64,000 nucleotides of DNA. Source: Candidatus Multivoradales bacterium (GTDB lineage Bacteria; Acidobacteriota; Thermoanaerobaculia; Multivoradales; Multivoraceae). Positions 46,852-62,400 of the stretch are shown in pieces. The notes beneath the pieces were generated by a model. That model had not been told where the DNA came from. It saw nothing but the letters and a program-made list of their open reading frames with translations, and made no database searches. A program made the position numbers and the translations under genes. The stretch's first letter is position 1. Each line of letters starts with the position of its first letter. Where the stretch lies: NCBI GenBank assembly GCA_965223325.1, contig CBDCWI010000002.1, forward strand, positions 1,504,001-1,568,000. The letters are read 5' to 3'.

Positions 46852-47840
46852 TCGATCGCATCTACGTCGAAGACGGGATCGGCGCGCACCCTCGAACCGC
46901 CGCGATCCAGAACGCTCTGCCGCACGCGAAGCGCATCGCCTGCAACCGCTACGGCGAGATCTTCAACCGCCGGCGACAGAGTTTCCGCTTGCAGAAGCAG
47001 AATCCGGCGCTCATCCTGGCAGAGAAGAAGGAACGACGCGTCCTCCCGACGCCTCCCGACTACGGCATCGGCGGCGCGCGAAACTTCTACTTCTCGCACA
47101 TGCTCAACTGCATCTACGACTGTCGCTACTGTTTTCTCCAGGGCATGTTGCGCTCGGCCCACTTCGTCCTCTTCGTCAACTACGAAGACTTCGCACTTGA
47201 CCTCGACAACACCCTCTCCCTGCACGCCGACGAAGACTGCTACTTCTTTTCGGGCTACGACTGCGACAGCCTGGCGCTCGAAGGCCTGAGCGGCTTCGCT
47301 CGCTTCTTCCTGCCCTTCTTCGCCGAACGACCGCGCGCAGTGCTCGAGCTGCGTACCAAGAGCGTGCAGATCGAGAGCCTGCTGGCCCATCCGCCGCTCC
47401 CGAACGTAGTGGTCGCCTGGAGTGTCTCACCCGACCCGATCCAGCGCGCTCTCGAGCACAAGACGCCAACGCTCGAACGCCGGTTGGCCGCCGCGAAGAA
47501 GCTCCAAGACGCCGGCTGGCCGATCGGCCTGCGCTTTGACCCGCTCATCTACAGCCAGGACGCCCAGGAAGAGTTCGCTCAGCTTCTCGATGCGACCAGT
47601 GCGGCACTCGACTTCGATCGCCTGCACTCGGTAAGCCTCGGAGTCTTCCGCCTCCCGCGCGATTTCCACCGACGGCTGGTACGCCTCTACCCGGAGTCGC
47701 CCATGCTGGCCGCCCCGACCGAACAGCAGAATGGCATGGTCACCTATCGAGAAGAGCTGCGAGAGGCACTCTTCGATGGTTGCCGCGACCAACTCCTCGA
47801 GCGAGTCGCCGCCGATCGCTACTACCCTTGCCTGAGTTGA
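46848..47840 (+). CDS. Spore-photoproduct-lyase-like radical SAM protein
   Basis: NCIYDCRYCFLQ, DSLALE, ELRTKS, WSVSP..IQ..LEHKT..L..RL.AA, GLRFDPLI. Confidence 0.85.
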   Translation: MIDRIYVEDGIGAHPRTAAIQNALPHAKRIACNRYGEIFNRRRQSFRLQKQNPALILAEKKERRVLPTPPDYGIGGARNFYFSHMLNCIYDCRYCFLQGMLRSAHFVLFVNYEDFALDLDNTLSLHADEDCYFFSGYDCDSLALEGLSGFARFFLPFFAERPRAVLELRTKSVQIESLLAHPPLPNVVVAWSVSPDPIQRALEHKTPTLERRLAAAKKLQDAGWPIGLRFDPLIYSQDAQEEFAQLLDATSAALDFDRLHSVSLGVFRLPRDFHRRLVRLYPESPMLAAPTEQQNGMVTYREELREALFDGCRDQLLERVAADRYYPCLS

Positions 47841-47848
47841 ACGGCACG

Positions 47849-48616
47849 ATGTCAGACCACTCCCAGAAGCCTCGAACAGGCGAAAGCACCTTGATGACCG
47901 GCGCGAGTTCTGGAATCGGTCGAGCGATCGCCGAGCGACTGTTGTCGGAGGGGCGAAACGTGGTGAGCCTGGGGCGGCGGCGCCCGGAGCCGGCAGGCGA
48001 GGGAGAGCTCACCTGGTTCGAGCTCGACTTGAGCGACACCGTTCGAATGCCCCAACGGCTGGCCACGATTCAGCAGGCTCTGCGTGAAACGCACACTGGG
48101 AGCCCAATCGATCAGTTCATCTTCTGCGCCGGGCGCGGTCGCTTCGGCGCGCTCGAAGAGTTCTCCTTCGCGCAGATTCACGAGTTGATCGACCTCAACT
48201 TCACCAGCACGGCATTCCTGGTGCGTGCCTTTATGCCCGAGATCAAAGCCGCCGGCGACCGTGCACGGGTGGTGTTTCTGGGCTCGGAAGCCGGTATCGA
48301 AGGTCGCAAGCGAGCGACCCTCTATGCCGCGTCGAAGTTCGCGCTGCGCGGCTTCGCTCAGGCCCTGCGTCAAGACCTCTCGTCGAGCGGCGCCGCGGTC
48401 AGCCTCATCCAACCCGGTCTGGTGCGCACACCGTTCTACGACGAGCTCGGCTTCGAGCCCGGCGCCGCGGCCGACGAGGCCCTGGAGGCCACAGACGTAG
48501 CCGAAGCAGTGTGCCTGGCTCTCCGAGCGCGCGCCGGCACGGTCGTTGAGGAGGTTACGCTCCGACCGCTCAAGAACGTGGTCCGCAAGCGGCGCCCGGG
48601 AACCGAAGCCTCCTGA
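47849..48616 (+). CDS. SDR oxidoreductase
   Basis: TGASSGIG, CAGRG, YAASKFALRG, PGLVRT. Confidence 0.9.
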   Translation: MSDHSQKPRTGESTLMTGASSGIGRAIAERLLSEGRNVVSLGRRRPEPAGEGELTWFELDLSDTVRMPQRLATIQQALRETHTGSPIDQFIFCAGRGRFGALEEFSFAQIHELIDLNFTSTAFLVRAFMPEIKAAGDRARVVFLGSEAGIEGRKRATLYAASKFALRGFAQALRQDLSSSGAAVSLIQPGLVRTPFYDELGFEPGAAADEALEATDVAEAVCLALRARAGTVVEEVTLRPLKNVVRKRRPGTEAS

Positions 48617-48620
48617 CCCG

Positions 48621-51335
48621 CTACGCGGTTTCGCGGTATGCGGTTCGGCTGCGCAACCCGGCCCATAGCGAAAGGAGCCCGAGCGCCAGAACCGCCGCCC
48701 CCGGCCAGCTCCCTTGGGCTTGCAACCAGACGGGCCCGCGACGAGCCGAGGCGGCCGCCAGCGGTACGACGCGCTCACCGTTGCCGACCAGAACGAACGC
48801 TGCCCACACTCCCATCGGCCGGCTCGGATCACCGCGCCACTGCCGCTTGGTCGAGAGCAACGCCGACCCGACGGTCTCGCCCCGCGCAAGACGCTCATAA
48901 ACCTCGCCCATGAAGTCGGCGGTCGATCGATCGTCGATTCGCCAGCGACTGGCGATGACGCTGTCGGCCCCCGCCATCTGGAAGGCGTGTGCCAGACCGA
49001 GCAGGCCGCGGCTCTCCCCGCTGGCGCTATCCCCCGTCTGGCAGGCGGAGAGCACCACCAGCGGACGATCGAGTGTCAGCCGCGAGATCTCGCGCGCCTG
49101 CAGGAGACCGTCCTCGAGCGGCTCGGGCGACGGCGCGAGAAGGAGCGCCGAGCGCTCTGGCCGCCGTACCGAAGCCAGACCATGGGTTGCGAAATGGAGG
49201 ACATCAAAGCGACGCAGGTCCTGGCGCTTCAGCCAGCTCTCCGAAGCCTCGCGACCGGTTCGCACCACACTCCCCTCTGCTGCAAAGCCAGACAGCGCGT
49301 CGACTTCGCGCGCGGTTCCCGGGAGGTGCGCCAGCGCCACTCCTTCGTCCTCGAAACTCGCGAGGTAGACGCCGTCGTCCCACGGCATCGCGACCGACGG
49401 TCCCTCGCCGTCCTCGGACCGGCCGGCAAGCAGGAGAAGCTTCGCGGACTCGCTTTCGGCTTGCGGGTGATGGTCAGCCTCATGACGCTCGACCAGGTTC
49501 GAAAGCGACACGTCGTGCACCACCATGTGAGTCTCGAGCAGCGGCCGGGGGTCTGCGCGGCGATCGCGTGTCCGGGGCGAGAGGATCTCGACCGGAAGCT
49601 CTGTCAACGCTCCACTAGCCAGCACGCGCAGGCGAGAGTACGAGCCCAACCGATCGCCCACGCTCCCGAACACCAGGTCTGCGAGTCCCACCGACGTCGC
49701 CTCCGCCGCCTCGCGACGGTCAGACTCGATGTGTTGTACCAGCAGTTGAATCCTCCGTGCGAGATCGTCACACGGCCGTTCGGCGACGTCAGAGTTCGCA
49801 CCCCCGCGGCCCAGGGCAATCACGATGCGGCGGTCGTCGGCGCAGTGTAGGCGGAGCAGAAGCTCGCCCGGGGCCAGCGCGTCGAGAACCCGACTGATTG
49901 CCGCCTGAGAGCGCGCGAGCTCTCGACTGTTCGCGCCCTCGTCGACCTCGGAGGTCGAGAAGAAGTCGGTCGCACCGACAGTAGACTCGATGAGCGGCAG
50001 GTCGAGCTCGAGTCGCTCGAGGACCCACAACAGCAGGTTGCGGTCCTCGCGCGGCAACGCCGGATCGGCAAGCCGCGCATGGAGGGCGCTGAGTTCACGC
50101 TTGGTCGCCTCATCGCGCTCGAGGGTGACTCCCTCGTCGTTGCGCAACAGCTGACTCTCGAGCGCCAGCAAGGCCTGCCCGACGTCACCGTCTTGACCGC
50201 GTGCCAGGAGCGCTCTAGCGCGCAGCTCTCCGAGCACCCGAACCTCTCGGTTCAACTCCTGTCGCTCGGCGGCGCCATGAAGGGCCGCTCGGCGTCGACT
50301 GACTTCTGAATCCGCCAGGGAGAGCTGGGTGAGGCTCTCATCGGCGTGCCCGTCTTCGAGCGCCACTCGGGCCAACCAGGCACGTGCCCGCCACCGTAGC
50401 CCCGGGCGCTCTCCCACCGCGAGTGCCCGCGAAACGAGGGCCGACGCGCGCCCCGAGTTTCCTCGCAGGCGCTCCACCGACGCCAGATCGAGCAGGCGAT
50501 GGGCCTCGGGGTCGGTGAGACCGGCAGAACGATAGAAGGCAGCGCTGGCCTCGAGATGCTGTTTAGAGACCGCGAGGTCCGGGACCTTCCCGGGTCGCTG
50601 TTCCATGAGAGCCGCACCCAGGACGGCCTCAATCCAGGCGATCTCGGCAGGACGTCGTGCGGCACGCGCCAGGTCGAGCGCTCTTGCGAGTGCCTCCTGG
50701 CCCTGGCGTGCGTCGCCTGAGAAGGCGTGGTGATTTCCAAGTCGCAACAACGCGTCGATTCGCCCCTGGACCCCACCTGCTCGCTCGGCCTTCTCGAGCA
50801 GGCGTTCGTAGATCTCGCCCGCGAGCCGGTTGGCACCGAGACGTTCATAGGCGGCGGCGAGGTTACCCAGAATGCTGACTTCGAGGTCTTCGTCCCCTGG
50901 ACCGATCTCGTCTAGCGCGGTCTCGAGCAGCCGCATCGACTGATCGAGGTACCCGAGGACTCGCATCGTGATGCCGAGGTCCTTCATCGCGACCAGCGTG
51001 CCGAACCGATCCCGGCGCAGCCGATGGAGGGCGAGCGCCCCGGTGAAAGCCGCCGCGGCACGCGCCTCCTGGTTGAGATAGAAGAGTGCGTTCCCCTTGG
51101 CCTCGAGCGCGGCGGCCTCGACGCGCTGGTCGCCGCCGCTTTCAGCCGCAACCAGCTCGAGCACCGCGTCGGCTTCTGCTAGCGCCTCGCGGTAGCGACC
51201 CTCCGCCTGGAAGGCGCGCGACCGCTCCAGCATCTCGTCGGGTACGGAGCGGGCGGCCAACACCGAAGGCACCGTGCCGAGCAAAAGGAGCAGCGCAAAT
51301 CCCACCGAGTGCGGGATGGAGCGGCAATTGATCAT
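48621..51335 (-). CDS. TPR-CHAT (caspase-like) protease with signal peptide and C-terminal TM anchor
   Basis: N-terminal FALLLLLGTVPSVLA; TPR repeats; LHFATHG and VVLSACQTG (His/Cys dyad), SRWRIDD, WAAFVLVG; C-terminal GAAVLALGLLSLWAG followed by basic residues. Confidence 0.88.
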   Translation of the reverse strand: MINCRSIPHSVGFALLLLLGTVPSVLAARSVPDEMLERSRAFQAEGRYREALAEADAVLELVAAESGGDQRVEAAALEAKGNALFYLNQEARAAAAFTGALALHRLRRDRFGTLVAMKDLGITMRVLGYLDQSMRLLETALDEIGPGDEDLEVSILGNLAAAYERLGANRLAGEIYERLLEKAERAGGVQGRIDALLRLGNHHAFSGDARQGQEALARALDLARAARRPAEIAWIEAVLGAALMEQRPGKVPDLAVSKQHLEASAAFYRSAGLTDPEAHRLLDLASVERLRGNSGRASALVSRALAVGERPGLRWRARAWLARVALEDGHADESLTQLSLADSEVSRRRAALHGAAERQELNREVRVLGELRARALLARGQDGDVGQALLALESQLLRNDEGVTLERDEATKRELSALHARLADPALPREDRNLLLWVLERLELDLPLIESTVGATDFFSTSEVDEGANSRELARSQAAISRVLDALAPGELLLRLHCADDRRIVIALGRGGANSDVAERPCDDLARRIQLLVQHIESDRREAAEATSVGLADLVFGSVGDRLGSYSRLRVLASGALTELPVEILSPRTRDRRADPRPLLETHMVVHDVSLSNLVERHEADHHPQAESESAKLLLLAGRSEDGEGPSVAMPWDDGVYLASFEDEGVALAHLPGTAREVDALSGFAAEGSVVRTGREASESWLKRQDLRRFDVLHFATHGLASVRRPERSALLLAPSPEPLEDGLLQAREISRLTLDRPLVVLSACQTGDSASGESRGLLGLAHAFQMAGADSVIASRWRIDDRSTADFMGEVYERLARGETVGSALLSTKRQWRGDPSRPMGVWAAFVLVGNGERVVPLAAASARRGPVWLQAQGSWPGAAVLALGLLSLWAGLRSRTAYRETA

Positions 51336-52048
51336 CGGTGAGGTGATTCCCCAGGTGGCCCGACTGCAGCCGGAAGAAGCGGGGAGACACGTTCGAAGGA
51401 TCCTTCGAACCACAAGTAGCGAAAGAAGTAGGTCTCTCCCTCCACCAGTTGACCCAGCACGGCCGGAGGAACGGTGCGCCACTCGCTCGAGTCGTCGTCA
51501 TGGCTACCCGAGAGTGAACCCCTCTGCTCGCTTTGCCAGACCACATTCGAGGCGCGATCGAAGAGCTCGACACGGAAACTCGAGACGACAGCAGATGGCA
51601 AGGGTCGGACATGTGCGAGGACGAGGTCAGGCGGCGGCAGCGGCGATTTCAGATCGGCAACTCGCAGGGGGTCCTCGGTGGCGCCCCCACGAAGGACGGA
51701 CCGGGCCGTGGGCTCCTGGTGCTTTCTGCTCGGCGAGAGATCCCGCCAGAGGAGCCCTGCGCCAACCGTCAGGAGAACCGCCGCGGCCAGCAAGAGAATC
51801 GAACTGCGCCCCGCCGGCGCGCCCGCTGGCGCGAGCTCATCGGCGGCCACGATCGCATCTTCTTCCGGTGACCACGAGCGTAGCGCCTCGAGGCGCAGCA
51901 TCACTTCCGCACAGTCAGCGCACTCGGCGAGGTGATCGGCGACCTGCTGGCGAACGTCCAGACGCGCGCTGCCCAGAAAGGTATCGGCCAACACCTCGGT
52001 CTCCGGGCAGGAAAGCGGTTGCGTCCTCGTACCGGCTGCCCTCATCAC
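51332..52048 (-). CDS. Zinc-finger (zf-HC2/ZAS) anti-sigma factor, single TM
   Basis: CP...HLAECADC, TM ILLLAAAVLLTVGAGLLW, extracytoplasmic domain; 4-nt overlaps with both neighbours. Confidence 0.85.
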   Translation of the reverse strand: MMRAAGTRTQPLSCPETEVLADTFLGSARLDVRQQVADHLAECADCAEVMLRLEALRSWSPEEDAIVAADELAPAGAPAGRSSILLLAAAVLLTVGAGLLWRDLSPSRKHQEPTARSVLRGGATEDPLRVADLKSPLPPPDLVLAHVRPLPSAVVSSFRVELFDRASNVVWQSEQRGSLSGSHDDDSSEWRTVPPAVLGQLVEGETYFFRYLWFEGSFERVSPLLPAAVGPPGESPHR

Positions 52049-52746
52049 GATCGCTCCGCTTCCGGTTCAGACAGTGAAGTGCGGCGAGACACCTCGGGCT
52101 CTTCGTCGCGCGCCAGAATGTGTCGCAGGTCAGCCAGGCCACGGTAGGCCAGGTTGCGAGCCTTGCCTTCTGTCCAGTCGAGCAGCCGGCCGATCTCCGC
52201 CGGCGAGAAGCCCTGCAAATGGAGCTGCACGGCGCGCCGTCGACCCTCAGACAGTTGGGCCAGCCCGTCCCGAATGCGGCGCGAGATCTCACGTGAGCGC
52301 GCCTGCCGTTCCGGCGTGGCCTGCGGGCTCTCGATTCGGTCGATCAGGCCTGGATCCGATTCGAGCTGGTCCTCGCGGCGGCGGCGGGCGACGCGAATGG
52401 CATCAATCGCAGCGGTCACCCCAACCCGCCGGACGTAGGAAGCAGAGAGCAACCCGCCGCCTCGCTCGTCGAGCGCCGGCGCTGTGTCGGATTGGTGGCG
52501 ACCCAAAAGCCGCTGCACGAGTGCTTTGTGCAAGCGCAGGATCGCATCCTGCTCGATGTCGTCGCGGTCGATGCCATAACTCGCTGGGCAGGTATCACCA
52601 ATCGCCCGCCTCAGGACTCCCTGATAGCGCTCGAGCACCGCTTCGAGCTGCTCGAACGACGCCTCCTCGACCTTCGACTCCGCGGAGTCTGGCGCTGGGT
52701 CCTGGTGGCTGTTGGGTGGAGAAGGCATTGCTTGGCGGGAACTCAC
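52045..52746 (-). CDS. ECF RNA polymerase sigma factor
   Basis: Region 2 DDIEQDAILRL, region 4 LSEGRRRAVQLHLQGFSPAEIGRLLDWTEGKARNLAYRGL; start GTG 52746 or ATG 52728. Confidence 0.9.
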   Translation of the reverse strand: MSSRQAMPSPPNSHQDPAPDSAESKVEEASFEQLEAVLERYQGVLRRAIGDTCPASYGIDRDDIEQDAILRLHKALVQRLLGRHQSDTAPALDERGGGLLSASYVRRVGVTAAIDAIRVARRRREDQLESDPGLIDRIESPQATPERQARSREISRRIRDGLAQLSEGRRRAVQLHLQGFSPAEIGRLLDWTEGKARNLAYRGLADLRHILARDEEPEVSRRTSLSEPEAERS

Positions 52747-52786
52747 TGGCAGGGACCCGGCACGTCGCGGCTTTCACCTCTCCCAT

Positions 52787-52824
52787 TCTGTAGAGGAACG
52801 TCTCAGAGAGGGGTTTCTTCTCAC
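52787..52824 (-). promoter_or_regulatory. Putative ECF promoter (autoregulatory) for the sigma/anti-sigma/CHAT operon
   Basis: Minus strand GTGAGAAG-aaacccctctctgag-ACGT-tcctctac-AGA. Confidence 0.65.
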
Positions 52825-52897
52825 CGCGCACGCTCGGGCCCGGAAACACAGGCCGAATCTTAAATTTTTGAGGTTTTCGGTGCAATTTCCTAGAAAA

Positions 52898-52935
52898 GTG
52901 AGAAGGAGGAGAGTTCAAAAACGTGTAATTATAGA
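52898..52935 (+). promoter_or_regulatory. Putative ECF promoter for the divergent surface-protein operon
   Basis: Plus strand GTGAGAAG-gaggagagttcaaaa-ACGT-gtaattat-AGA; same boxes and spacing as the minus-strand copy. Confidence 0.65.
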
Positions 52936-53003
52936 GAAACTACGGACTGGGTCTTCCAATCCGAGGTTTCGCAACCTGTGACAACCCAACGAGACCCAAG
53001 ACC

Positions 53004-56000
53004 ATGAACCCCCAGCTCTTCCGTATCGTGCCATTCTCTCTTCTTGTCCTCGCCATCCTGCCGACTCACGGGCAAGCTCAGCAGTGCACTGCCGGCGGCG
53101 ACGTGCTCGCCTGCCTCGAAGTCCAGAACGATGCGTCTCTACGCAGTGACGAAGTCGCGTTCTCGAGCGTACCGATCGCGGCGTCGGCAGCGCTACTCAA
53201 CACCGATTCGCTGTTCGTCGAGGACCTGGACGACAACCCGGTTCCGGCACAGTTCAAAGTGATCGCACGATGGGGTGGCACGCGTGACAACGCCACCCGC
53301 CCGATCCGCTGGCTCGAGGTTGCAATCCAGGACGCGATCGCTGCCGACACCACCGAGTCCTATCGACTACGCGTGGATGCCGGTGGCATGCCTCCTTCTG
53401 TCCCGACACCTCTGGTGGTGACCAACGCCGGCAACGACTGGACCGTCGACACCGGCCCGGCGACCTTCACAATCGACGCCACCAACCCGGCGCTGCTCGA
53501 CACCGTCGCCCTGGGCGCCGCAACAATCTACCAACACAGCGCCGGCAGTGGTCCGCGACTCGAGCTCACCGGTGGCGCGGTGCTCGACACCTCTGGCGCC
53601 GGTGAAGTGGTCATCGATTCCGGTTCGTTTCAGGTCCTCGAGAGTGGGCCGTTGAAGGCCAGTTTCGCCGTCACTGGTCACTTCATCGACGCGGGTGGTA
53701 GCAGTCTGTGCAGCGAGGTCACGCCGGCCTACGAATCGCTGGGGTACACGGCAGTTCTGACCTTCACCCGCGGCACTTCACACATCGACATGCAAGTGCA
53801 TCTGCGCAACGAGTGCCTCGACGCGATGTTCGGCCCCTTCACCGGCGGCGCACGGTCTTTTGACCGATTCTCCTGGGAACTGGCAACCAACCTGCCAACG
53901 AACATCCGTCTCGTCGCGGCCAGCGGTGCGGTGCAATCGAGCGCCGGCGATGTGTCCGCCGAACAGCAAAAGGGCGCGGGCGACCCCTGGGCCCGTCGCG
54001 CCCGGGCACGGGCCAACGGCACGACGGTCGAGACTGTCGAAGCGGCTGCCAACCCGATCGTCGCCGTGGGCGACTCTTCAATCATGGCGAGCGCCCAGAT
54101 CTCGTGGATGCGCTTCCGGGAGCCACAGGCGGTGGCCACCGAGGGTGCAACGGTTTCGCTGCGCTTTATCTCCGAGCCGCTGGTGGTCGGCGGCGGCAAA
54201 GGCATCTGGAACACCGCCCGGGTCAGCTTCCCCACCGGTGTCACCGATGGTGCTGCACTCGAGGGGCTGCGTACCGCCAACCAACTCGCCCTCGAACGCG
54301 GTCTCCTGGTGCGCGCGACGCGCGACGATGTGAACGCCGCCGGAGTCTTCCCCGGCCTCGGCACCGACGCGGCCTCGCTTTTCAAGACCGACTACGAAGC
54401 CTTCCTCGACCTCTGGCACGGCGAAACGGTCGACTCCGGTGGGCAACACGAGCTCGCCAAGACTTTCGGCTCTCAGCTGTGGCCCGACACGCAGGGCAAC
54501 ACCTGGGCACGAGTCGAAGACACCATTGGCCCGACGAACAACCCCGGCGGCCTCAACTACTGGAACACGTCGAGAGTCGAGCTGCTCGAGTGGTTCCGCA
54601 CAGGCGACCCGACCTGGGTGTGGGAGCTCTCTCTTCCGCTCACCTGGCAACAGGTGATTTCGGCGTACGTCAACCTCGGCGACAACGACGACGGGTTCAA
54701 GAACGGGCTCAACCTCACCAGCCCGATCTGCGATGGTGCCGGCGGTCTCTGCGAAGAAGGTCAGTGGTATCGCTACGCCGGTGGTTCCGACGACTACGGC
54801 TACACCTTCGGCAACCTCGGCTACGTCGTGCGCCCGAACTATCCGCTCGAGCGGCGCTTCGCGGCTGCCGGACGCACGGTGCTCGACCGCTACAACATCC
54901 CGCGCGCCCAGCAGGCAACCCGCCAGCAGTTCGTCAACCAAGTCTCACCGGAACGCCAGATCGTCCAGCACTTCGTGCAGCTCGCCAACTGCGCCGAGTT
55001 CGTTGGTGGCGCCACCGGCCAGGCGTGCCACGACCAGCTCATGCTGACTCTCGAAGAGCTGGTGGAAGAAAACATGAGCACGGGCCTGATCTGCCAGGGC
55101 GACATCCAACCTGCCGACCCGAGTCTGTGTATGCCCAATGGTGGCAACCCGGCACTCGACTGGTGCGACTGCGTGATGCCGCAGCAGTTCATCCTCAACA
55201 GTCTGATGATGCCGTTTCTGACCCGCATGTACCTCAACTACGGCGACATCTCGGATGGCCTGTTGGACGGGCTGACGCTCACCCAGTTCCACACCTACCG
55301 GGAGACCCTTACGATCCCTGAGGCGACGACGCCCGACCAGCCGAGTGATCCCGAGCGCCCGGCGATTCCCTTCAACCCGCCGCAGGATTGGCTCGGCCAA
55401 CCTGGCTGGGACACCGACACCATGCCCTTCACCGTCGTCGATGTCGATGTGGTCGACAACGACCCGGCGACCACCGACCCCTCGGGCGACCCGGCCAATC
55501 TGCTGCTCGAACCCAACAAACCGCAGGCAATGGCCTGGCTGATGCTCGCGCACCAACTCGACCCATCGGTCGACCTGTGCGCCGTCGCCCGCGCGACGCT
55601 CCAGGACCAGTTCATGCTCGACGCCTGGGACGAGTACCAAGGGTTCTTGGGCTGGGGCAAGGGTCCCGCCCAGGTGATGCAGGGAATCGCTTTCGGCCTG
55701 CACGCCTACGACACCTGTACGGCGGGAGGTAACGCGGCACCGCAGGTCGACATCACGGCGCCGGCAAACGCTGCCACCTTCGCCTCTGGAGCGACCGTCA
55801 ACTTCACGGCGACCGCGACCGACGCTGAAGACGGCAATCTCGCCGCTTCGGTGGTCTGGACTTCGAACCTCGACGGGCCCCTCGGCACCGGGGCCATGGT
55901 TGCCGCCAACCCTGGTGATGGCACGCACACGGTGACCGCCGCGGTCACCGACTCGGGCGGTACGACCGCCACCGACACCATCACCATCACCGTTGGCAGC

Positions 56001-56876
56001 GGCGGTGGCAACAACCCGCCGCAGGTCACCGTTACCGCACCGGCGAACGGCGCCGAATTCGCTTCGGGTGAAACGGTCCAGCTCACAGCCACAGCCACCG
56101 ATACGGAAGACGGCAATCTCGCCGCCTCGGTGGTCTGGACTTCGGACCGCGACGGCGCTCTGGGTACCGGCTCGCCGCTCAATACCACGCTCTCCGAGGG
56201 TGCCCACACGATCACGGCTTCGGTGACCGACAACGACTCCGCGACCGATACCGACACAGTCGACGTGACGATCGCCGCCGGCCCTAGCTGCCGCGAGGCC
56301 CTGGTTGTCGACCAGGATTTCGAAGCCGGCCTCGGCGACTGGACGACCGGCAGCCTCTGGCACCTGGCGACAAACTCCACCTGCGCGCCCCCGGGCTACA
56401 GCTCAGCTTCAACCAGCGCCTACTTCGGCCAGGACGCCACCTGCAACTACTCGACCGGCGCGCGAGTTGCCGGCAATCTCACGTCACCGCCGATCGAAGG
56501 CATCAGCGCTCTTTCGGTTCTGCGCTTCATGTACTTCCGAGAAGTCGAAGACGAGCCGATGGCGACCGTCGACATCACCCAGGTCGACGCGCGACCTGCC
56601 GGAAGTGGTAGCGCCTGGACGACGCTCTGGGTACGCAACTCGAGCGACCCCTCGAGCGCCACCTGGACGCCGTCGGGTGACCCTTCGCTCGCGGCCTTCC
56701 TAGACCAGACGATCGAAGTGCGCTTTCGGTTCGACAGCGACGACGAACAGTTCAACACGACAGTCGGCTGGCTGATCGACGACATCGAAGTCACCGGCTG
56801 CGAGCAGCCTCTCTTCGAGGACGGCTTCGAATCCAACGACACGACGGCGTGGGATCGCGCCATTGGCCTGCCATGA
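53004..56876 (+). CDS. Large secreted protein: PcRGLX/YetA-like (RIFT barrel + alpha-toroid lyase-fold) region, two Ig-like domains, jelly-roll domain, C-terminal FxDGFES motif
   Basis: Signal peptide ending GQA; VPAQFKVIARW..IRWLEV, TVDTGPATFTI, ESGPLKA, WFRTGDP; tandem PQVxITAPAN..TATATDxEDG repeats; LFEDGFESNDTTAWD. Confidence 0.7.
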   Translation: MNPQLFRIVPFSLLVLAILPTHGQAQQCTAGGDVLACLEVQNDASLRSDEVAFSSVPIAASAALLNTDSLFVEDLDDNPVPAQFKVIARWGGTRDNATRPIRWLEVAIQDAIAADTTESYRLRVDAGGMPPSVPTPLVVTNAGNDWTVDTGPATFTIDATNPALLDTVALGAATIYQHSAGSGPRLELTGGAVLDTSGAGEVVIDSGSFQVLESGPLKASFAVTGHFIDAGGSSLCSEVTPAYESLGYTAVLTFTRGTSHIDMQVHLRNECLDAMFGPFTGGARSFDRFSWELATNLPTNIRLVAASGAVQSSAGDVSAEQQKGAGDPWARRARARANGTTVETVEAAANPIVAVGDSSIMASAQISWMRFREPQAVATEGATVSLRFISEPLVVGGGKGIWNTARVSFPTGVTDGAALEGLRTANQLALERGLLVRATRDDVNAAGVFPGLGTDAASLFKTDYEAFLDLWHGETVDSGGQHELAKTFGSQLWPDTQGNTWARVEDTIGPTNNPGGLNYWNTSRVELLEWFRTGDPTWVWELSLPLTWQQVISAYVNLGDNDDGFKNGLNLTSPICDGAGGLCEEGQWYRYAGGSDDYGYTFGNLGYVVRPNYPLERRFAAAGRTVLDRYNIPRAQQATRQQFVNQVSPERQIVQHFVQLANCAEFVGGATGQACHDQLMLTLEELVEENMSTGLICQGDIQPADPSLCMPNGGNPALDWCDCVMPQQFILNSLMMPFLTRMYLNYGDISDGLLDGLTLTQFHTYRETLTIPEATTPDQPSDPERPAIPFNPPQDWLGQPGWDTDTMPFTVVDVDVVDNDPATTDPSGDPANLLLEPNKPQAMAWLMLAHQLDPSVDLCAVARATLQDQFMLDAWDEYQGFLGWGKGPAQVMQGIAFGLHAYDTCTAGGNAAPQVDITAPANAATFASGATVNFTATATDAEDGNLAASVVWTSNLDGPLGTGAMVAANPGDGTHTVTAAVTDSGGTTATDTITITVGSGGGNNPPQVTVTAPANGAEFASGETVQLTATATDTEDGNLAASVVWTSDRDGALGTGSPLNTTLSEGAHTITASVTDNDSATDTDTVDVTIAAGPSCREALVVDQDFEAGLGDWTTGSLWHLATNSTCAPPGYSSASTSAYFGQDATCNYSTGARVAGNLTSPPIEGISALSVLRFMYFREVEDEPMATVDITQVDARPAGSGSAWTTLWVRNSSDPSSATWTPSGDPSLAAFLDQTIEVRFRFDSDDEQFNTTVGWLIDDIEVTGCEQPLFEDGFESNDTTAWDRAIGLP
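55731..56277 (+). repeat. Tandem duplicated Ig-like domain (279-nt period)
   Basis: 39-nt block at 55827-55865 and 56106-56144 is identical at 38/39 positions. Confidence 0.85.
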
Positions 56877-57000
56877 TCCCCCGCCCCCTTACGGCGCTCG
56901 CATGAGCACACGAAACCGCCCGCTCCGGCTGCACGCTGGACCGGGCGGTTGGAGGTTCCAGATGACACCTTCGAGAACCCAGAAGACCTCGCGAATCTCC

Positions 57001-60000
57001 ATGCCGCGGCGTGGCACGTCGATCGTGCGCTGGCTGGCCCCGGCCTGGTTGACCCTCCTCTCGGCGATCGCTTTCGACACCGTTGCCGCCCAGGACGACA
57101 TCGTGCGCATCTCCAACCCAGCACCGGTCAGCGAGGGCGGCACCTTCTCTTTCAACGTCTTCATCGAAGATGGCAGCGGCACTCCGGGCGCCAACGGGAG
57201 CTTTGCCGTCGACGTCTTCTTCGATCAGGGAACCACCGCTCATCCCGCAGGCACGCCGGACCTGACGACCTTCTCGACAACGGTCCTCTTCAACCCCGGC
57301 GACACGTCGCAAACTGCCACCTTGGAGGTCGCCGACGACGCCCTGATGGAGTATGACGAGAGCTTTCGGGTCATGATCGCCTTCCCAACGACGCCTCCTG
57401 CAAACACCATTATCGGAAGCCCCGGCACCGCAGAGGCCACCATCCTCGATGACGACCGCCACCATACGATGACGGTCACCCCCCCACCTTTGCCGCATCC
57501 CGAGGGGACCCAGTTCGCGACCTGGAACATCACCTTCACACCACCGCTCGCGGACAGCCTCACCCTGCGCTCCTTCCTTGAGCCGTCCCTCGGGTCGGCG
57601 ATCCAGGGTCCGCCGGGCTCCGGCGCCGACATCGACCCTTACGATCGCACCGAAGTCGTAGTCCCCGGCGCGACGAATCTCCAGGCGGTCATTTCGGTGC
57701 ACGACGATCTTGTAGTGGAGGGAGAGGAAGACTTCTTCCTCAACTTCGAGGTCGTCTCCTACAACAATCCGATCATGGAGCTCCACCTGCCGCCGTCGCT
57801 TCCGCTCCAGGGCAGGATCGAGGATGATGACGCTCCAACGAGCTACACGCTGACGCTCAACGTTCCGAGCCTCGTCACCGAGCCAGCGGCCGGACAAGCA
57901 GACATCGGCGCAACCCTGTCGATCAGTCCCGAATACCCGTTCGCGATCCCCATTCTCCTTCAGCTGACCAGCGATACCGCACAGGCCGGAAGCGACTTCC
58001 AGCCGTTCAACCAGACGATCACCTTCCCCCCGGACACTCTGAGCCTCGATCTTCCGATCGAAGTCTTCGCTGACAACATCTTCGAGGGTGACGAGGCGTT
58101 CAACGTCCTGGTCAAGGACCAAGACACCGGCGAGACCCTGACCGCCGTGGTCACCATCGACGACGAGGACCAGGAGCCCACCGTGCAGTTCGACGGCAAC
58201 GTCGCGGCGCTCGAGGGAAACGCGGATCACATTGTTCCGTTCTCGGTCTCGCTCAGCCACATGAGCAGCCAGCCGGTCGACCTCATCCTCTCCGCCTTGC
58301 CCGACGGCCCCGCCGGTCAGCAGGCGACGATCGGTACCGACGTCTCCTGCGAAACGACCTTTCAGATTCAGGAGCTGACCCTCACGGATCAGATCGACTG
58401 CACGTACGTCGGCGATTCGGACTTCGAACCCAACGAGTTCTTCAAGCTCACCATCACCTCGGCGACCGGCGCCACCATCGCCGTGGGCGGTGCCTCGGCA
58501 CAAGGCGAAATCCAGAACGACGATGTGAGTATGCCGCCCGCAACTCCAACGGTTTCGATCTCCGACTTCACCCTCACCGAAGGCACGGGCGGGCCCAGCG
58601 AGGCAACGCTGTCGGTGGAGCTCATGGGCACTCCTCCGACGTCACCCGGAGACATGTGGGTCGACTGGGCGACTGAAGCGGGCTCTGCCCAGGAGAACCT
58701 CGACTTCCAGCCGGTTGGTGGCCGCCTCGACTTCTTCGACGGTGCGCTGCAACAGATCACAGTGGCGGTTGTCGCCGACAACCTCATCGAAGCGAACGAG
58801 ACCTTCTCCGTGTCGCTGATCGACCACTCCCCCACGGTCACCCTCGACAAGTCGGTCGGCACCGTCACCATTCTCGACGACGACGCGGCGACACCCCAAC
58901 CAACCGTCCACCTCGCCGACGCCCAGCTTGCAGAAGGCGACGATGGCCAGACGGTGATCGAGCTCCGTGCCCTCGTAGCACCCGAGGCAAGCACCATCAG
59001 CTTCGTCAGCGTTCGCACGGTCGACGGCACCGCCACCACCGCCGACGGAGACTACGTCGAACATACTGGGAGGCTGCGTTTCGGTCCCGGAGACAGCGAA
59101 CAGAAGTTCCAGATCAGCATCCAGGGCGACACCCGTCTCGAAGATGACGAGCAGTTCTTCGTCGAGCTCTTCGACCCCGCCGGGCTCGCGCTTCCTGCCG
59201 AGCCGCGGGCCACGGTCACGATTCGAAACGACGACCCGGACCCCGGCGGCGGCGATGGTGGCGGTGACGGCGGAGACCCAGCCAACCCGCCGCGCATCGA
59301 CCTGAGCGCCGCCGCGACGGTCGTTGAGTCGGCCTCGTTCCTACCTGTGACGATCGACCTCCGCGGTCGTGCCGGCCAGACTGTGCGCGCTGAGGTACGG
59401 GTCGAAGACTTGACCGCCCGCGCTGGTGAAGACTTCCAGGCACGGGTATGGAACGTCGAGTTTCCGGCTGGCTCTGAAAACGCCCGCACCGAGCTGCGCC
59501 TTCAACTGATCGACGACCGCATTCGCGAGCGCGCTGAGCGCCTGCGCCTCAGACTTCAGCTGACAACGACCGGGGCCGCGCTGCTCGGCCAGAGCGAGGC
59601 CATCGTCACCATTGTCGACAACGACAACGCGGTGCGACTAGTAGCCGACGAAGTAGCCGAACGCGCCAGGATTGGTGACCAGATTGGCCTCGGTGTCACC
59701 GCCCTCGGCGCCGACGACCGCCCCGTCCAGGGCATCATGATCGACTGGAGCGTCGCCAGGGGAGCGCAACTGCTCGGCGAAGAGAGCCAGCGTACCGACC
59801 GCAATGGTCACGTGAGTCAAGAGATACGTCTCGCCGACCGGCCAGGGGAAGCCGTCGTCACAGCGAGAATGCGCGGCAGTGAGCTCGCCGTCGTGTTCTC
59901 CATCGCGACCGAGGCAAGACTGCGTGATCTCTTCGACGACACTCGCGACCCCGACGAACACTCCGTCGGCGGCACTCTCGATCGCTTCTGCCTCGAACCG

Positions 60001-61299
60001 AGCGACGAACTCGCCGAGATCTGCAACTACCTCCTCGATCTGCCCGACGACGACGCCCGACGACAGGCGGTGCGGTGGATCACTCCACGCGGGCTGGAAG
60101 CGCAGGGTGACGCAATGCTTCAGGGCGCACGGACCCAGGTGCGCAATGTCGGCCTCCGCACGCAGCAGCTGCGCGCCGGCGAGGCACTCGGCGGCTCACT
60201 CGACGGCCTCAACTTCTCACAGCGCCGCGACTCGCTAGCGGTCGGCCAGCTCAGAAACGGTCTCAAGAAGCCCAGCCACCAGGCGATGAGCGAGCAGGCA
60301 CTCGCGAGGAGTGTCGATCGCTCGCTGGCCAGTCTTCGCGATGCGGCCGGTCAGGGAGACTCTCGGAGCGAGCTCGGCAGTCCGGTTCACCGCGGTGGCA
60401 GTGCCAGCGCCGATGAGGCGATCATCCTCGCCGAAGAGAACGAGTCTCCGTGGGGTTGGTTCGTCAACGGTCGTCTCGCCGTCGGTGAACACGAACAGAC
60501 CCGCACCGAACCGAGCTACGACGTCTCGACCTGGGGCCTGACTGCCGGCATCGACTACAAGGTCAGGGCCAACGGCTTCATCGGCGTAGCGCTCGGCTAT
60601 CTCGACTCGACCGCCGACATCAACAGTGACCGAGGCGAACTGACCGCCACCGGCTACACGGCCAGTCTCTACACCGCCTGGCAATGGCAGGCACTGTGGG
60701 TGGATGGCGCACTGACCTATGGCCAGGTCGACCTCGAAAGCCTACGCACGCTTCGTTTGCCCCGCGCGTTTCGGGGCGAAAGCACCTTGACTGCCCACGG
60801 GGACACCCAGGCTGATCTCGTGTCGAGCAACATCGGTCTCGGTTACGACTTCCAGGCGGGTCGTCTCGGGCTGACCGGTTTCGCCCGCGGACTGTGGTCG
60901 GAAACCAGTATCGATGGCTTCAGCGAGCGCGGCGTCGGCCCCTTCGCTCTGGTGATCGGACAGCAGGACGTCGAGTCCCTTCTCACCGAGGCGGGGCTCG
61001 AAGCGGCATTGCCGATTCATCGCCGCTTCGGAGTCTTGAACCCGACCCTGCGACTGGCCTACGTGCACGAGTTCGAAGACGACGAGCGTCTGGTAGGCGG
61101 TGCCTTCCTGTTCGACGAAAACCGGAACGACTTCGGCATCCGATTCGAGAACCCAGACCGCGACTACTTCAACCTCGGCCTCGGCCTGCAGCTGACGCTG
61201 CGTGGAAGCCGCCTGGTCTATGTCGCCCTCGACACAGATCTGGCGCGCGACGACTGGAGCCACTACACGCTGACCTTCGGCTTCCGTTCGCAGTTCTAG
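57001..61299 (+). CDS. Autotransporter with multiple Calx-beta repeats (putative adhesin)
   Basis: Signal peptide (..LLSAIAFDTVAA); about 7 Calx-beta units ending TIxDDD/NDD; C-terminal beta-barrel GLTAGIDY...YVHEF...ending in Phe; start 57001 (in-frame upstream starts to 56863 possible). Confidence 0.85.
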   Translation: MPRRGTSIVRWLAPAWLTLLSAIAFDTVAAQDDIVRISNPAPVSEGGTFSFNVFIEDGSGTPGANGSFAVDVFFDQGTTAHPAGTPDLTTFSTTVLFNPGDTSQTATLEVADDALMEYDESFRVMIAFPTTPPANTIIGSPGTAEATILDDDRHHTMTVTPPPLPHPEGTQFATWNITFTPPLADSLTLRSFLEPSLGSAIQGPPGSGADIDPYDRTEVVVPGATNLQAVISVHDDLVVEGEEDFFLNFEVVSYNNPIMELHLPPSLPLQGRIEDDDAPTSYTLTLNVPSLVTEPAAGQADIGATLSISPEYPFAIPILLQLTSDTAQAGSDFQPFNQTITFPPDTLSLDLPIEVFADNIFEGDEAFNVLVKDQDTGETLTAVVTIDDEDQEPTVQFDGNVAALEGNADHIVPFSVSLSHMSSQPVDLILSALPDGPAGQQATIGTDVSCETTFQIQELTLTDQIDCTYVGDSDFEPNEFFKLTITSATGATIAVGGASAQGEIQNDDVSMPPATPTVSISDFTLTEGTGGPSEATLSVELMGTPPTSPGDMWVDWATEAGSAQENLDFQPVGGRLDFFDGALQQITVAVVADNLIEANETFSVSLIDHSPTVTLDKSVGTVTILDDDAATPQPTVHLADAQLAEGDDGQTVIELRALVAPEASTISFVSVRTVDGTATTADGDYVEHTGRLRFGPGDSEQKFQISIQGDTRLEDDEQFFVELFDPAGLALPAEPRATVTIRNDDPDPGGGDGGGDGGDPANPPRIDLSAAATVVESASFLPVTIDLRGRAGQTVRAEVRVEDLTARAGEDFQARVWNVEFPAGSENARTELRLQLIDDRIRERAERLRLRLQLTTTGAALLGQSEAIVTIVDNDNAVRLVADEVAERARIGDQIGLGVTALGADDRPVQGIMIDWSVARGAQLLGEESQRTDRNGHVSQEIRLADRPGEAVVTARMRGSELAVVFSIATEARLRDLFDDTRDPDEHSVGGTLDRFCLEPSDELAEICNYLLDLPDDDARRQAVRWITPRGLEAQGDAMLQGARTQVRNVGLRTQQLRAGEALGGSLDGLNFSQRRDSLAVGQLRNGLKKPSHQAMSEQALARSVDRSLASLRDAAGQGDSRSELGSPVHRGGSASADEAIILAEENESPWGWFVNGRLAVGEHEQTRTEPSYDVSTWGLTAGIDYKVRANGFIGVALGYLDSTADINSDRGELTATGYTASLYTAWQWQALWVDGALTYGQVDLESLRTLRLPRAFRGESTLTAHGDTQADLVSSNIGLGYDFQAGRLGLTGFARGLWSETSIDGFSERGVGPFALVIGQQDVESLLTEAGLEAALPIHRRFGVLNPTLRLAYVHEFEDDERLVGGAFLFDENRNDFGIRFENPDRDYFNLGLGLQLTLRGSRLVYVALDTDLARDDWSHYTLTFGFRSQF

Positions 61300-61371: not shown

Positions 61372-62400
61372 ATGGCACTGGTAGAGCGCACCCCCCAACC
61401 GTCGCTTTTTGGAGCAAACGAGACTCTCGAACTCGAGATCCTGCGCCAGGAGACCAACGAGCCAACCGAATCGGTTTCGCCATCCGGCGTTTCCCCCGGC
61501 AAGCTCGCCGCGCTACGTGAATTGTTGCCCAGCGCGCTGCAGCGCCAGCTCAAGAGTGGTCGCGAACTCTTGTCAGACGCTGAACGTGGGGACGAGCCAT
61601 GGATGGAAGACGGCCGTTTGCCAACTGGCGTTTCAGCACTCGACGAACTGCTCGACGGTGGTTTGCGCGCTGGCGAAACTCTCGAGGTCATCGGAGCGCG
61701 CACCTCGGGGCGTTTCTCGCTAGTGCTCGAAACCCTGGCTTCGACAACTGCCAGTGGCCAGGTCGCAGCGCTGGTCGATCTCGGCGACAACTTCGATCCT
61801 GCAACCGCACTCGATGTTGGCATCGAGCTCGAACGCCTGTTGTGGCTACGGCCGCGACATATGAAAAAGGCACTGGCGAGCGCCGAGATTCTGATCGGGG
61901 CCGGTTTCCCGTTGGTGATTCTCGATCTCGGAACACCGCCAGTGGCTGGTGGCCGCGGCAAAGAAGCAGCCTGGCTGCGACTGGCACGAGCGGCAGACGA
62001 ACACCGAACACGGCTTCTGGTTTCGGCTCCCTATCGCATGAGCGGGAGCGCCGCGCATGCCGTGTTGAAGCTCGAACGACGACCACGGGTGCGCTGGGCC
62101 GGGCGTGCCTACGGGCGACCAACACCAGCACCGGCGCCGAACCTTCTGCTCGGGCTGGTCAACCGGCTGCTCTTCGAGAAGGCACGCGGCGCCCTGGCAA
62201 GGAGAGCCCGGCGCAAAACGACCATAGAGCTCAGCTGGCAAATGGCAAGCGAAAGCCTGGCCGAGCCGTTGGTCGAAACACTCGAGCACAGCCGCCAGGC
62301 CAAATCACGGCCGACCCCCCGCGCGGCACCTGATGTTGCAATTGCCAATGATCTCGATTCCCCCAAAGCTCCGGTTCGTCATGCCAGCGGCAAGCGATAA
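61372..62400 (+). CDS. imuA: ImuA-like RecA-fold mutagenesis protein
   Basis: LPTGVSALDELLDGGL, degenerate Walker A GARTSGRFS, DLGDNFDP, GIELERLLW; immediately upstream of imuB. Confidence 0.82.
   Translation: MALVERTPQPSLFGANETLELEILRQETNEPTESVSPSGVSPGKLAALRELLPSALQRQLKSGRELLSDAERGDEPWMEDGRLPTGVSALDELLDGGLRAGETLEVIGARTSGRFSLVLETLASTTASGQVAALVDLGDNFDPATALDVGIELERLLWLRPRHMKKALASAEILIGAGFPLVILDLGTPPVAGGRGKEAAWLRLARAADEHRTRLLVSAPYRMSGSAAHAVLKLERRPRVRWAGRAYGRPTPAPAPNLLLGLVNRLLFEKARGALARRARRKTTIELSWQMASESLAEPLVETLEHSRQAKSRPTPRAAPDVAIANDLDSPKAPVRHASGKR

Follow-up and report, generated by a model that had tools for sequence, protein, structure and literature searches.

A conserved triad of ECF sigma factor, anti-sigma factor and TPR-CHAT protein in a Multivoradales bacterium: a split version of DdvA with a predicted arginine-specific site-1 cleavage

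How might an anti-sigma factor that is anchored in a membrane be removed when the gene next to its own encodes a caspase-like protease? The question is raised by three genes of Candidatus Multivoradales bacterium (Acidobacteriota; assembly GCA_965223325.1, contig CBDCWI010000002.1), which lie in a stretch of 64,000 nucleotides (contig positions 1,504,001 to 1,568,000), here called the window. They code for a sigma factor of the extracytoplasmic function (ECF) type, an anti-sigma factor with one transmembrane (TM) segment, and a protein with tetratricopeptide repeats (TPR) and a CHAT protease domain. We find that the anti-sigma factor carries a conserved arginine, Arg120, in its disordered extracytoplasmic linker, which is new here, and that the split, probably exported form of this system is real and widespread. 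We suggest that the CHAT protein is a dedicated arginine-specific site-1 protease in a trans-envelope switch operating by regulated proteolysis. The cleavage is a prediction, and we give this reading somewhat better than even chances.

The three genes are tightly coupled. The stop codon of the sigma gene (52047-52045) overlaps the GTG start of the anti-sigma gene at 52048 by 4 nt (GTGA), and the anti-sigma stop codon (51334-51332) overlaps the ATG of the TPR-CHAT gene at 51335 to the same extent (ATGA). With this ATG as start codon the TPR-CHAT protein has 904 residues, not the 953 of the mechanically derived open reading frame (ORF). A public contig matches positions 47500-57045 of the window with zero differences. 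The sigma factor scores 55.9 bits against TIGR02937 (cut-off 42.9). The zinc ligands of the anti-sigma factor are C14, H39, C43 and C46, the latter three within the motif H39xxxC43xxC46. A single TM segment follows at about residues 84-100, then a disordered linker (107-138; predicted local distance difference test score, pLDDT, mostly below 50) and an FN3-like beta-sandwich at about 143-228. By itself the window's protein stays below the cut-off of Pfam zf-HC2 (E = 0.059), and 22 of the 40 family members match this domain. These 40 sequences, from which the family profile was built, are the window's protein, its paralog and 38 of 52 search matches. The resemblance of the outer domain to FN3/Ig-like folds is weak, and a fold search with it gave no match at E = 0.001 or better. 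DUF928 was also considered for the outer domain and rejected, as none of the 40 members matches it in Pfam.

The CHAT domain matches PF12770 with E = 4.8e-53 (180.9 bits, cut-off 24), and TPR_12 is matched as well. Both residues of the catalytic dyad, His718 and Cys765, are present, and E677 is conserved in 71 of 72 CHAT proteins from such triads. The N-terminus has a hydrophobic, signal-like segment. The C-terminal segment is moderately hydrophobic (17-residue mean 1.75, which is below the threshold of a stricter first scan), and the predicted model (pLDDT 84) has a C-terminal helix at 877-903. Since basic residues follow this hydrophobic segment, the protease would be extracytoplasmic and tethered by its tail. 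Thus, the TPR-CHAT protein is probably exported and held at the membrane by its C-terminus; here and below, export and topology were judged from hydrophobicity alone. A sequence-only reading of the window had described three genes with 4-nt overlaps as an ECF sigma factor, a single-TM HxxxCxxC anti-sigma factor and a TPR-CHAT protein with an intact His/Cys dyad, and all of this is confirmed.

Which known system is closest? Searches of the PDB with the single CHAT sequence returned TPR proteins only, or nothing, and profiles were needed. The CHAT-domain profile then finds DdvA of Myxococcus xanthus first (E = 4.1e-16), followed by Csx29 (E = 2e-10 to 1e-8) and separase. A fold search with the CHAT model likewise ranks DdvA first (E = 1.1e-15) and also matches Csx29 chains. 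The anti-sigma family profile matches residues 7-97 of DdvA best among PDB entries (E = 1.3e-6; 8rot_B, 8rlz_A), and Csx30 is absent from its 19 PDB matches. DdvA is therefore the closest solved relative of both halves, and it replaces Csx29/Csx30, which the sequence-only reading had named as the precedent. We regard the window system as a split, two-protein version of DdvA that works like DdvA/DdvS.

What is known of DdvA bears directly on the mechanism. DdvA is one chain made up of a zinc-binding anti-sigma domain (ZAS), a TM segment, a flexible linker and a periplasmic TPR-CHAT part, and without its TPR-CHAT part it is degraded by RseP (PMC11506125). Its authors propose a signal-induced cleavage of the linker followed by RseP; the RseP step was shown, the first step could not be, and a phage-linked protein is proposed as the signal (PMC11506125). 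The CHAT domain in this type of system lacks the three-helix motif of the active site, which dimer formation completes. The sequence-only reading knew of no mechanistic characterisation of such neighbourhoods. This holds for the split form only, because a site-1 model had already been proposed for DdvA (PMC11506125). DdvA/DdvS (PDB 8ROT, 8RW5, 8RLZ) shares with the window an ECF sigma gene followed by that of a ZAS-type, single-TM anti-sigma factor with an N-terminal zinc-binding domain and a flexible linker. A His-Cys dyad in an extracytoplasmic CHAT domain (here placed there from hydrophobic segments) and the proposed logic of a site-1 protease followed by RseP are also common to both. In contrast to DdvA, the anti-sigma factor and the TPR-CHAT protein of the window are separate ORFs in different frames, the anti-sigma factor is capped by an FN3-like domain, and the CHAT protein appears to have its own signal peptide and C-terminal anchor. 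Fused DdvA-like proteins are reported from Myxococcota and one Comamonas only, and no scissile bond is named (PMC11506125, accessible parts). A fused ZAS-TM-TPR-CHAT protein of more than 1000 residues, DdvA-like and outside this reported range, occurs at locus L210 (genome G051, same order as the window's).

We then asked whether the linker contains a plausible cut site. The alignment of 82 family members has only four invariant columns, and these are Arg120 and three zinc ligands. When the linkers were shuffled and re-aligned, 12 such trials reached at most 34 arginines in one column. With hmmalign, 76 of 79 sequences sharing no 15-mer with the training set place an arginine at the Arg120 column (200 shuffles: mean 39, maximum 49). 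An alignment-free pattern, written after seeing those sequences, matches 57 of the 82 against 4.1 after shuffling. The arginine lies 21-30 residues before a conserved tryptophan of the sandwich; on the other side, between 19 and 44 residues separate it from the TM anchor. It is kept at all eight loci fetched outside the order. The family context reads [VTA]-[YVL]-R-[GSE]-[GA], and the bond R120-G121 is the likely candidate for the scissile bond. Six gammaproteobacterial relatives keep the Arg site; none of these anti-sigma factors (L143-L146, L149, L150; Lysobacterales, Rhodanobacteraceae) has the zinc-binding histidine, and two of them have also lost both cysteines.

An arginine at this place suits a CHAT substrate. 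The CHAT domain of HetF cuts PatU3 at T-N-Y-R117/S118, where changes of R117 abolish cleavage and S118A slows it (PMC9457339), and the Arg120 context resembles this TNYR/S site. Separase cuts after arginine in unstructured chains (PMC10317155). The accessible part of the SAVED-CHAT preprint gives no cut site. On the side of the enzyme, the invariant Asp802 is a candidate acidic specificity residue. DdvA also has Asp at this position and the craspase chains shown have Ser, a pattern that would fit a role in an arginine pocket.

Does the site go along with CHAT genes in other anti-sigma factors? As control we took the top 80 proteins by zf-HC2 score alone. Fifteen of them lie within 5.5 kb of a CHAT gene and one is fused to CHAT. 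Among the CHAT-adjacent control proteins 11 were aligned, and ten of these have R-G/S in one column ahead of the beta-sandwich; the exception adjoins the CHAT gene of another triad. The remaining four were left out since they have another architecture, and three of them show a similar site by eye. A scan with a position weight matrix (PWM) gives higher scores in CHAT-adjacent proteins (p = 0.0012; 16 versus 42 proteins, kin not being independent).

Two further groups of anti-sigma factors came to light. One is a second family near CHAT genes (L163, L168, L170, L175, L180, L198, L211, L215, L219, L225). Its proteins are longer than the window's family, several have a doubled zinc motif or a coiled-coil stalk, and R-G/S stands just before the terminal beta-sandwich. 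The ectodomain profile of this family weakly matches that of the window's family, with the arginine in register. The other group (L165, L171, L202, L212, L230) is a zf-HC2 family in which a conserved F/Y-x-T-L motif in the linker precedes a different small outer domain. It has no CHAT gene nearby, and a subtilase-like motif stands beside one member only.

The sequence-only reading had proposed to predict a complex of the CHAT protein with the anti-sigma ectodomain. For CHAT residues 29-862 and anti-sigma residues 104-230, each with its own alignment, the score is 0.54, and the best of three controls reaches 0.00. The runs agree in at least 40% of the contacts, and the pLDDT of the partner is at least 49. 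The mark used here is reached by 116 of 157 solved pairs and by two of 215 mismatched pairs; at 0.60 or under it is reached by only 18 of the solved pairs plus both mismatches. The prediction is thus weak support for a contact, and likeness to solved TPR-CHAT complexes may contribute to the score.

We suggest that the switch operates in the following steps. At rest the zinc domain of the anti-sigma factor would hold the ECF sigma factor, and the FN3-like outer domain would block the intramembrane protease. The TPR-CHAT protein would be exported by its signal peptide and anchored to this membrane through its C-terminal helix, so that the protease domain would lie outside the cytoplasm. On binding a cue, the TPR superhelix could then activate the His718/Cys765 dyad, and CHAT would cut the anti-sigma factor after Arg120 (S-V-L-R / G-G), some 20 residues out from the membrane. 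Once the FN3-like cap is lost, RseP, whose gene is present in the genome, would gain access, cut the TM stub and set the sigma factor free. The freed sigma factor would transcribe its own operon and, in this genome, perhaps the divergent genes for a glycan-active surface protein and a Calx-beta autotransporter. That CHAT is the site-1 protease, as the sequence-only reading had put forward, is thus the most likely mechanism and now has a candidate bond in R120-G121; the cleavage as such stays a prediction. Cleavage at Arg120 by this CHAT protein seems to us moderately probable.

Several observations weigh against this mechanism. No cleavage has been observed in any system of the DdvA type, the window's included. 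DdvA remains a repressor when it carries H862A or C907A, and autoproteolysis is not set off by phage Mx4 (PMC11506125, accessible parts). Csx29-type CHAT proteins cut after Met or Leu, so specificity for Arg is not universal. Asp802 stands at Cys+37, whereas Asp2070 of human separase stands at Cys+41 (C2029), a position that is Ala here. Equivalence is therefore not established and a match of the same position is improbable; the assignment of Asp802 as the separase S1 aspartate was dropped on this spacing. The motif is short and the linker is rich in arginine (mean 3 Arg per 29 residues), and a default alignment of 34 members splits the Arg column. A strict motif scan within 35 residues of the TM segment hits none of the 14 proteins that adjoin CHAT or are fused to it, compared with 5 of the 42 others; that it does not discriminate is partly due to the second family, whose site lies further out. 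PWM scores beat per-sequence shuffles in 2 of 16 CHAT-adjacent proteins and in 6 of 42 others. Ten family loci without a nearby CHAT gene still keep the arginine, and the conserved arginine could be a binding residue instead of the P1 residue.

This last point leads to a different mechanism, in which induced cleavage plays no part. The Arg linker would dock in or near the CHAT active site, or be cut constitutively with the pieces staying together. The TPR-CHAT protein would then be a co-repressor or shield, and its signal-induced release would expose the anti-sigma factor to another site-1 protease or to RseP. Such docking explains the conserved arginine, the gene linkage and the predicted contact equally well. 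The TPR-CHAT part of DdvA is a proven steric block to RseP and still represses as a dyad mutant, and constitutively self-cleaving anti-sigma factors with associated products are cited in the same paper (PMC11506125). However, all 72 triad CHAT proteins keep the dyad, for which a pure scaffold would have no need, and a P1 arginine renders securin cleavable, not inhibitory (PMC10317155). We consider docking without induced cleavage unlikely and prefer the site-1 mechanism.

How firmly are the three genes linked? The anti-sigma profile was searched in 151 genomes of the order, and 80 of the first 97 matches were taken, picked on the anti-sigma score without regard to neighbours; two matches from the own genome and 15 others, mostly same-genus copies or short contigs, were left out. 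An ECF sigma gene lies within 1.5 kb of the anti-sigma gene at all 80 loci. A CHAT gene is found in the fetched region at 70 loci and within 5 kb at 67, with four orientations represented. By chance a CHAT gene is expected in a 13-kb stretch in 0.6-5.7% of cases (five example genomes). Kin are not independent; the anti-sigma factors form 51 clusters at 50% identity. Among the 70 linked CHAT proteins, six of which are truncated at the 5' end, a signal-like N-terminus is seen in 44 and a C-terminal TM segment in 43; at least one of these features is present in 58. Fusion of the anti-sigma factor to CHAT is seen at none of 72 CHAT-bearing family loci. Three of the ten loci without CHAT lie near a contig end and seven are amply flanked; these family members may use a CHAT protein from elsewhere in the genome. 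A single genome of the order can have as many as 44 CHAT matches. Across the phylum the anti-sigma family is present in 23 of 121 genomes at E = 1e-15 (a tally that includes the unpublished genome G185). Outside the order the eight fetched loci (9 kb each) have the sigma gene in 8/8 and CHAT in 7/8 cases. A search seeded with the sigma factor yielded eight gammaproteobacterial loci, six with the anti-sigma gene and five with CHAT. The conservation of the triad in a neighbourhood search, which the sequence-only reading had made a test of its proposal, is thus evident, and functional coupling of the three genes is in our view very probable.

Gene order bears on another possibility, namely that CHAT is an output of the system. 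It would be an exported protease of the regulon, acting in the maturation or breakdown of surface or foreign proteins, and the cut in the anti-sigma factor would be made by a general envelope protease, of the HtrA/DegS type or another. CHAT is indeed co-transcribed behind the sigma gene here and lies downstream in the same direction at 37 of the 70 loci; there are several weak matches with PDZ domains in the genome, and seven well-flanked family loci have no CHAT gene nearby. Yet CHAT is convergent at 22 loci and upstream at 11, so that at 33 of 70 simple read-through from the sigma promoter does not account for it. Moreover, the same two modules are fused in DdvA and at L210, which points to direct mutual action, and the motif of Arg and a small residue fits a CHAT substrate. 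We rate CHAT as an output as distinctly improbable and retain the site-1 mechanism.

Some loci deserve separate mention. The own genome has a second, paralogous triad (L001:4084-10710; C1:545083-551709), which comprises an exported Calx-beta protein, an ECF sigma factor and an anti-sigma factor that belongs to the window's family and has S-S-L-R-G in its linker, together with a further exported protein, whose tail reads FxNGFE, and a TPR-CHAT protein. This CHAT gene is convergent, and its product has a signal-like N-terminus and a C-terminal TM segment. A third CHAT protein of the genome (L002:8138-11092; C1:1378137-1381091; E = 3e-19) has the His and the Cys, no adjoining ECF-like gene, no C-terminal TM segment and, by eye, Asn at the position of the triads' invariant Asp. 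A protein of 330-380 residues, mostly exported, lies between the anti-sigma factor and CHAT at L080, L102, L112, L113, L117, L118, L121, L129 and L001. Most of these proteins have no Pfam match, and BTRD1 repeats occur in L080 and L121 (and in L119). At L231:4808-7557 the CHAT gene extends over two overlapping frames, owing to a frameshift or an assembly error.

The window system can be set apart from several known ones. In the craspase Csx29/Csx30/CASP-sigma a TPR-CHAT protein activated through its TPR likewise cleaves a sigma inhibitor, but that system is cytoplasmic and RNA-guided, needs Cas7-11 and has the soluble Csx30 as substrate (PMC10028731); the window's CHAT protein has a signal-like N-terminus and a C-terminal TM segment, and its anti-sigma factor is a ZAS membrane protein. 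HetF of Anabaena PCC 7120 is also a stand-alone membrane-anchored CHAT protease that cuts one regulator after Arg, but a membrane segment separates its CHAT domain from periplasmic TPRs and the substrate is not an anti-sigma factor (PMC9457339). ECF54 combines an ECF sigma factor with a conserved neighbouring TPR-CHAT gene of suggested regulatory function, without CRISPR. It differs in being confined to Actinobacteria, in having no anti-sigma factor and another promoter consensus, and in its neighbours, a carboxypeptidase-regulatory-like protein and a subtilase (PMC7826278, with supplement, citing Huang et al. 2015; accessible parts). The window has an anti-sigma factor and, unlike ECF54, neither of these two neighbours. 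Whereas the DdvA regulon comprises CRISPR-Cas and CBASS genes, the neighbours here are surface proteins and no defence genes adjoin the triad. That the system is CRISPR-free, as first read from the window, agrees with the lack of Cas1 and RAMP matches in the 98% complete genome (CBASS genes were not searched for). It is thus neither craspase nor ECF54, and it stands outside the DdvA type as it is not fused and has no CRISPR regulon. In the canonical DegS-RseA-RseP and PrsW-RsiW pathways a single-pass anti-sigma factor is removed in two proteolytic steps. Such a two-step removal is proposed here too, and the RseP gene is at hand, but the site-1 role would fall to a cysteine protease of clan CD that has a TPR sensor and is encoded with each sigma factor. 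We found no description of the split exported form or of the Arg site in the accessible literature on CHAT proteins with ECF sigma or anti-sigma factors, subscription journals being outside this coverage. The papers listed on this subject were the two on DdvA, the one on craspase, the ECF re-classification and a review of non-canonical ECF sigma factors (PMC8999054).

Which genes would the sigma factor serve? The sequence-only reading expected the induction of a surface enzyme and an adhesin. Divergent from the triad it had seen a 1290-residue secreted protein and a Calx-beta autotransporter. Both are confirmed, the first as PcRGLX-like by language-model features (score 0.97) with Big_7/PKD domains in Pfam, the second by Pfam matches to Calx-beta (five stretches), Big_1 and an autotransporter barrel. 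The two genes are probably co-transcribed. Its claim that the same promoter-like motif faces each operon also holds. Exact copies of GTGAGAAG-N15-ACGT occur only twice in the 6.69-Mb genome, beginning at 52898 (+) and 52824 (-), 79 nt before the ATG of the 1290-residue protein and 52 nt before the sigma GTG. The spacing is ECF-like and the CGT of the -10 element is as in the DdvS promoters, which read GTAA-n16-CGT (PMC6061681). When the 275-nt intergenic region was dinucleotide-shuffled 300 times, an equally good divergent pair arose in 10 cases, and the pair is thus modestly above chance. A scan for the sigma-70 consensus gave two sites, neither of them in the intergenic region.

The comparison with relatives speaks against this regulon. 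Five relaxed patterns are not enriched upstream of 80 family sigma genes (p = 0.08-0.65), whose products are at most 46% identical to the window's; GAA-N17-CGT, for instance, is found in 5 of 80 upstream regions against 4.5 after shuffling. One similar site turned up, at L113 only, and no bipartite word like the motif ranks among the 25 words most enriched in front of the 29 closest sigma genes. The paralogous cluster has no good copy. A conserved cargo was considered and rejected, because the genes upstream of the sigma gene at 73 related loci are spread over many unrelated families and are mostly housekeeping genes or otherwise unrelated. A Calx-beta neighbour recurs at the in-genome paralog only, and an ORF with the FxDGFE tail is present in the fetched region of just 9 of the 80 relatives. 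Thus, the link to the regulon has no support outside this genome. The induction once proposed keeps in its favour the two-copy motif and the shuffling result, and it loses the conservation of upstream gene and motif.

Possibly, then, the triad works as proposed and the large surface genes are bystanders with a promoter of their own, the motif being due to chance or belonging to another of the about 35 ECF-like sigma factors of the genome. We put the chances of this slightly below even. It would account for the free variation of the upstream neighbour, for the missing enrichment of the motif and for the 11 further ORFs in the genome that resemble the autotransporter. It does not sit easily with the fact that the only two exact copies face both operons back to back with ECF-like features, nor with the flanks of the paralogous triad, which are exported proteins as well; Calx-beta domains occur in one of them and the same tail motif in another. 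That the sigma factor controls the two large surface genes is, accordingly, a tentative proposal that falls a little short of an even chance. Taken over all loci, the triad has the look of a portable switch whose cargo varies.

Features of the triad and of the divergent genes (window positions)
Feature	Position	Strand	Remarks
TPR-CHAT protease, 904 aa	48621..51335	-	signal-like N-terminus, TPR superhelix, CHAT domain, C-terminal anchor (predicted) and basic tail
Invariant Asp802 codon	48930..48932	-	candidate acidic specificity residue; 72/72 triad CHATs
Catalytic Cys765 codon	49041..49043	-	72/72 triad CHATs
Catalytic His718 codon	49182..49184	-	72/72 triad CHATs
Anti-sigma factor, 238 aa	51332..52048	-	zinc-binding domain, TM segment, linker, FN3-like domain
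Arg120 codon	51689..51691	-	predicted P1 residue of site-1 cut (S-V-L-R120 / G-G); conserved in disordered linker
HxxxCxxC zinc-ligand motif (H39-C46)	51911..51934	-	invariant in 82/82 aligned members
ECF sigma factor	52045..52746	-	233 aa from GTG 52746, or 227 aa from ATG 52728; TIGR02937, Sigma70_r4_2
GTGAGAAG-N15-ACGT, facing sigma operon	52798..52824	-	putative autoregulatory ECF promoter
GTGAGAAG-N15-ACGT, facing 1290-aa gene	52898..52924	+	
Exported protein, 1290 aa	53004..56876	+	PcRGLX-like N-terminal region, two Ig/PKD domains, C-terminal FxDGFE-type tail; putative regulon member
Calx-beta repeat autotransporter	56863..61299	+	probable start ATG 56962 behind GGAGG, 1445 aa; putative adhesin

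Around these genes we note the following. The 1290-residue protein has 13 relatives with identities of 37-60%, and its FxDGFE-type tail (window 56800-56876) is common to 62 ORFs of the genome. Beyond the autotransporter (61372-64000) Pfam recognizes a RecA-like and an IMS-family gene, which we take to be a mutagenesis cassette of the ImuA/ImuB type. On the other side an operon at 45080-48616, with a glycosyltransferase-like gene (by eye), a radical SAM gene resembling spore photoproduct lyase and a short-chain dehydrogenase gene, converges on the CHAT stop codon with a gap of 4 nt.

The triad may stand for more than one locus. We see an even chance that it represents a widespread and undescribed trans-envelope class, in which each ECF sigma factor has an exported, membrane-tethered, separase-like protease that senses its cue through the TPR and cuts the anti-sigma factor at a conserved Arg-Gly/Ser. 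This class would be the general, possibly ancestral form of the DdvA/craspase logic, with many copies per genome in this order, and would have been re-used for adjoining surface enzymes and adhesins.

The DdvA study left the question of CHAT as a site-1 protease unsettled, the signal being unknown and enzyme and substrate being one chain. In the split form enzyme and substrate are two chains that can be produced and mutated independently of each other and then combined. A specific prediction follows from the conserved arginine, namely that R120A blocks and that C765A blocks. The three-gene module of sensor, protease and sigma factor is a candidate for engineered envelope sensors. If the mechanism is true, the site-1 enzymes would include, besides DegS and PrsW, a class of caspase-like proteases, and a function could be assigned to many genes for exported TPR-CHAT proteins that are uncharacterised so far.

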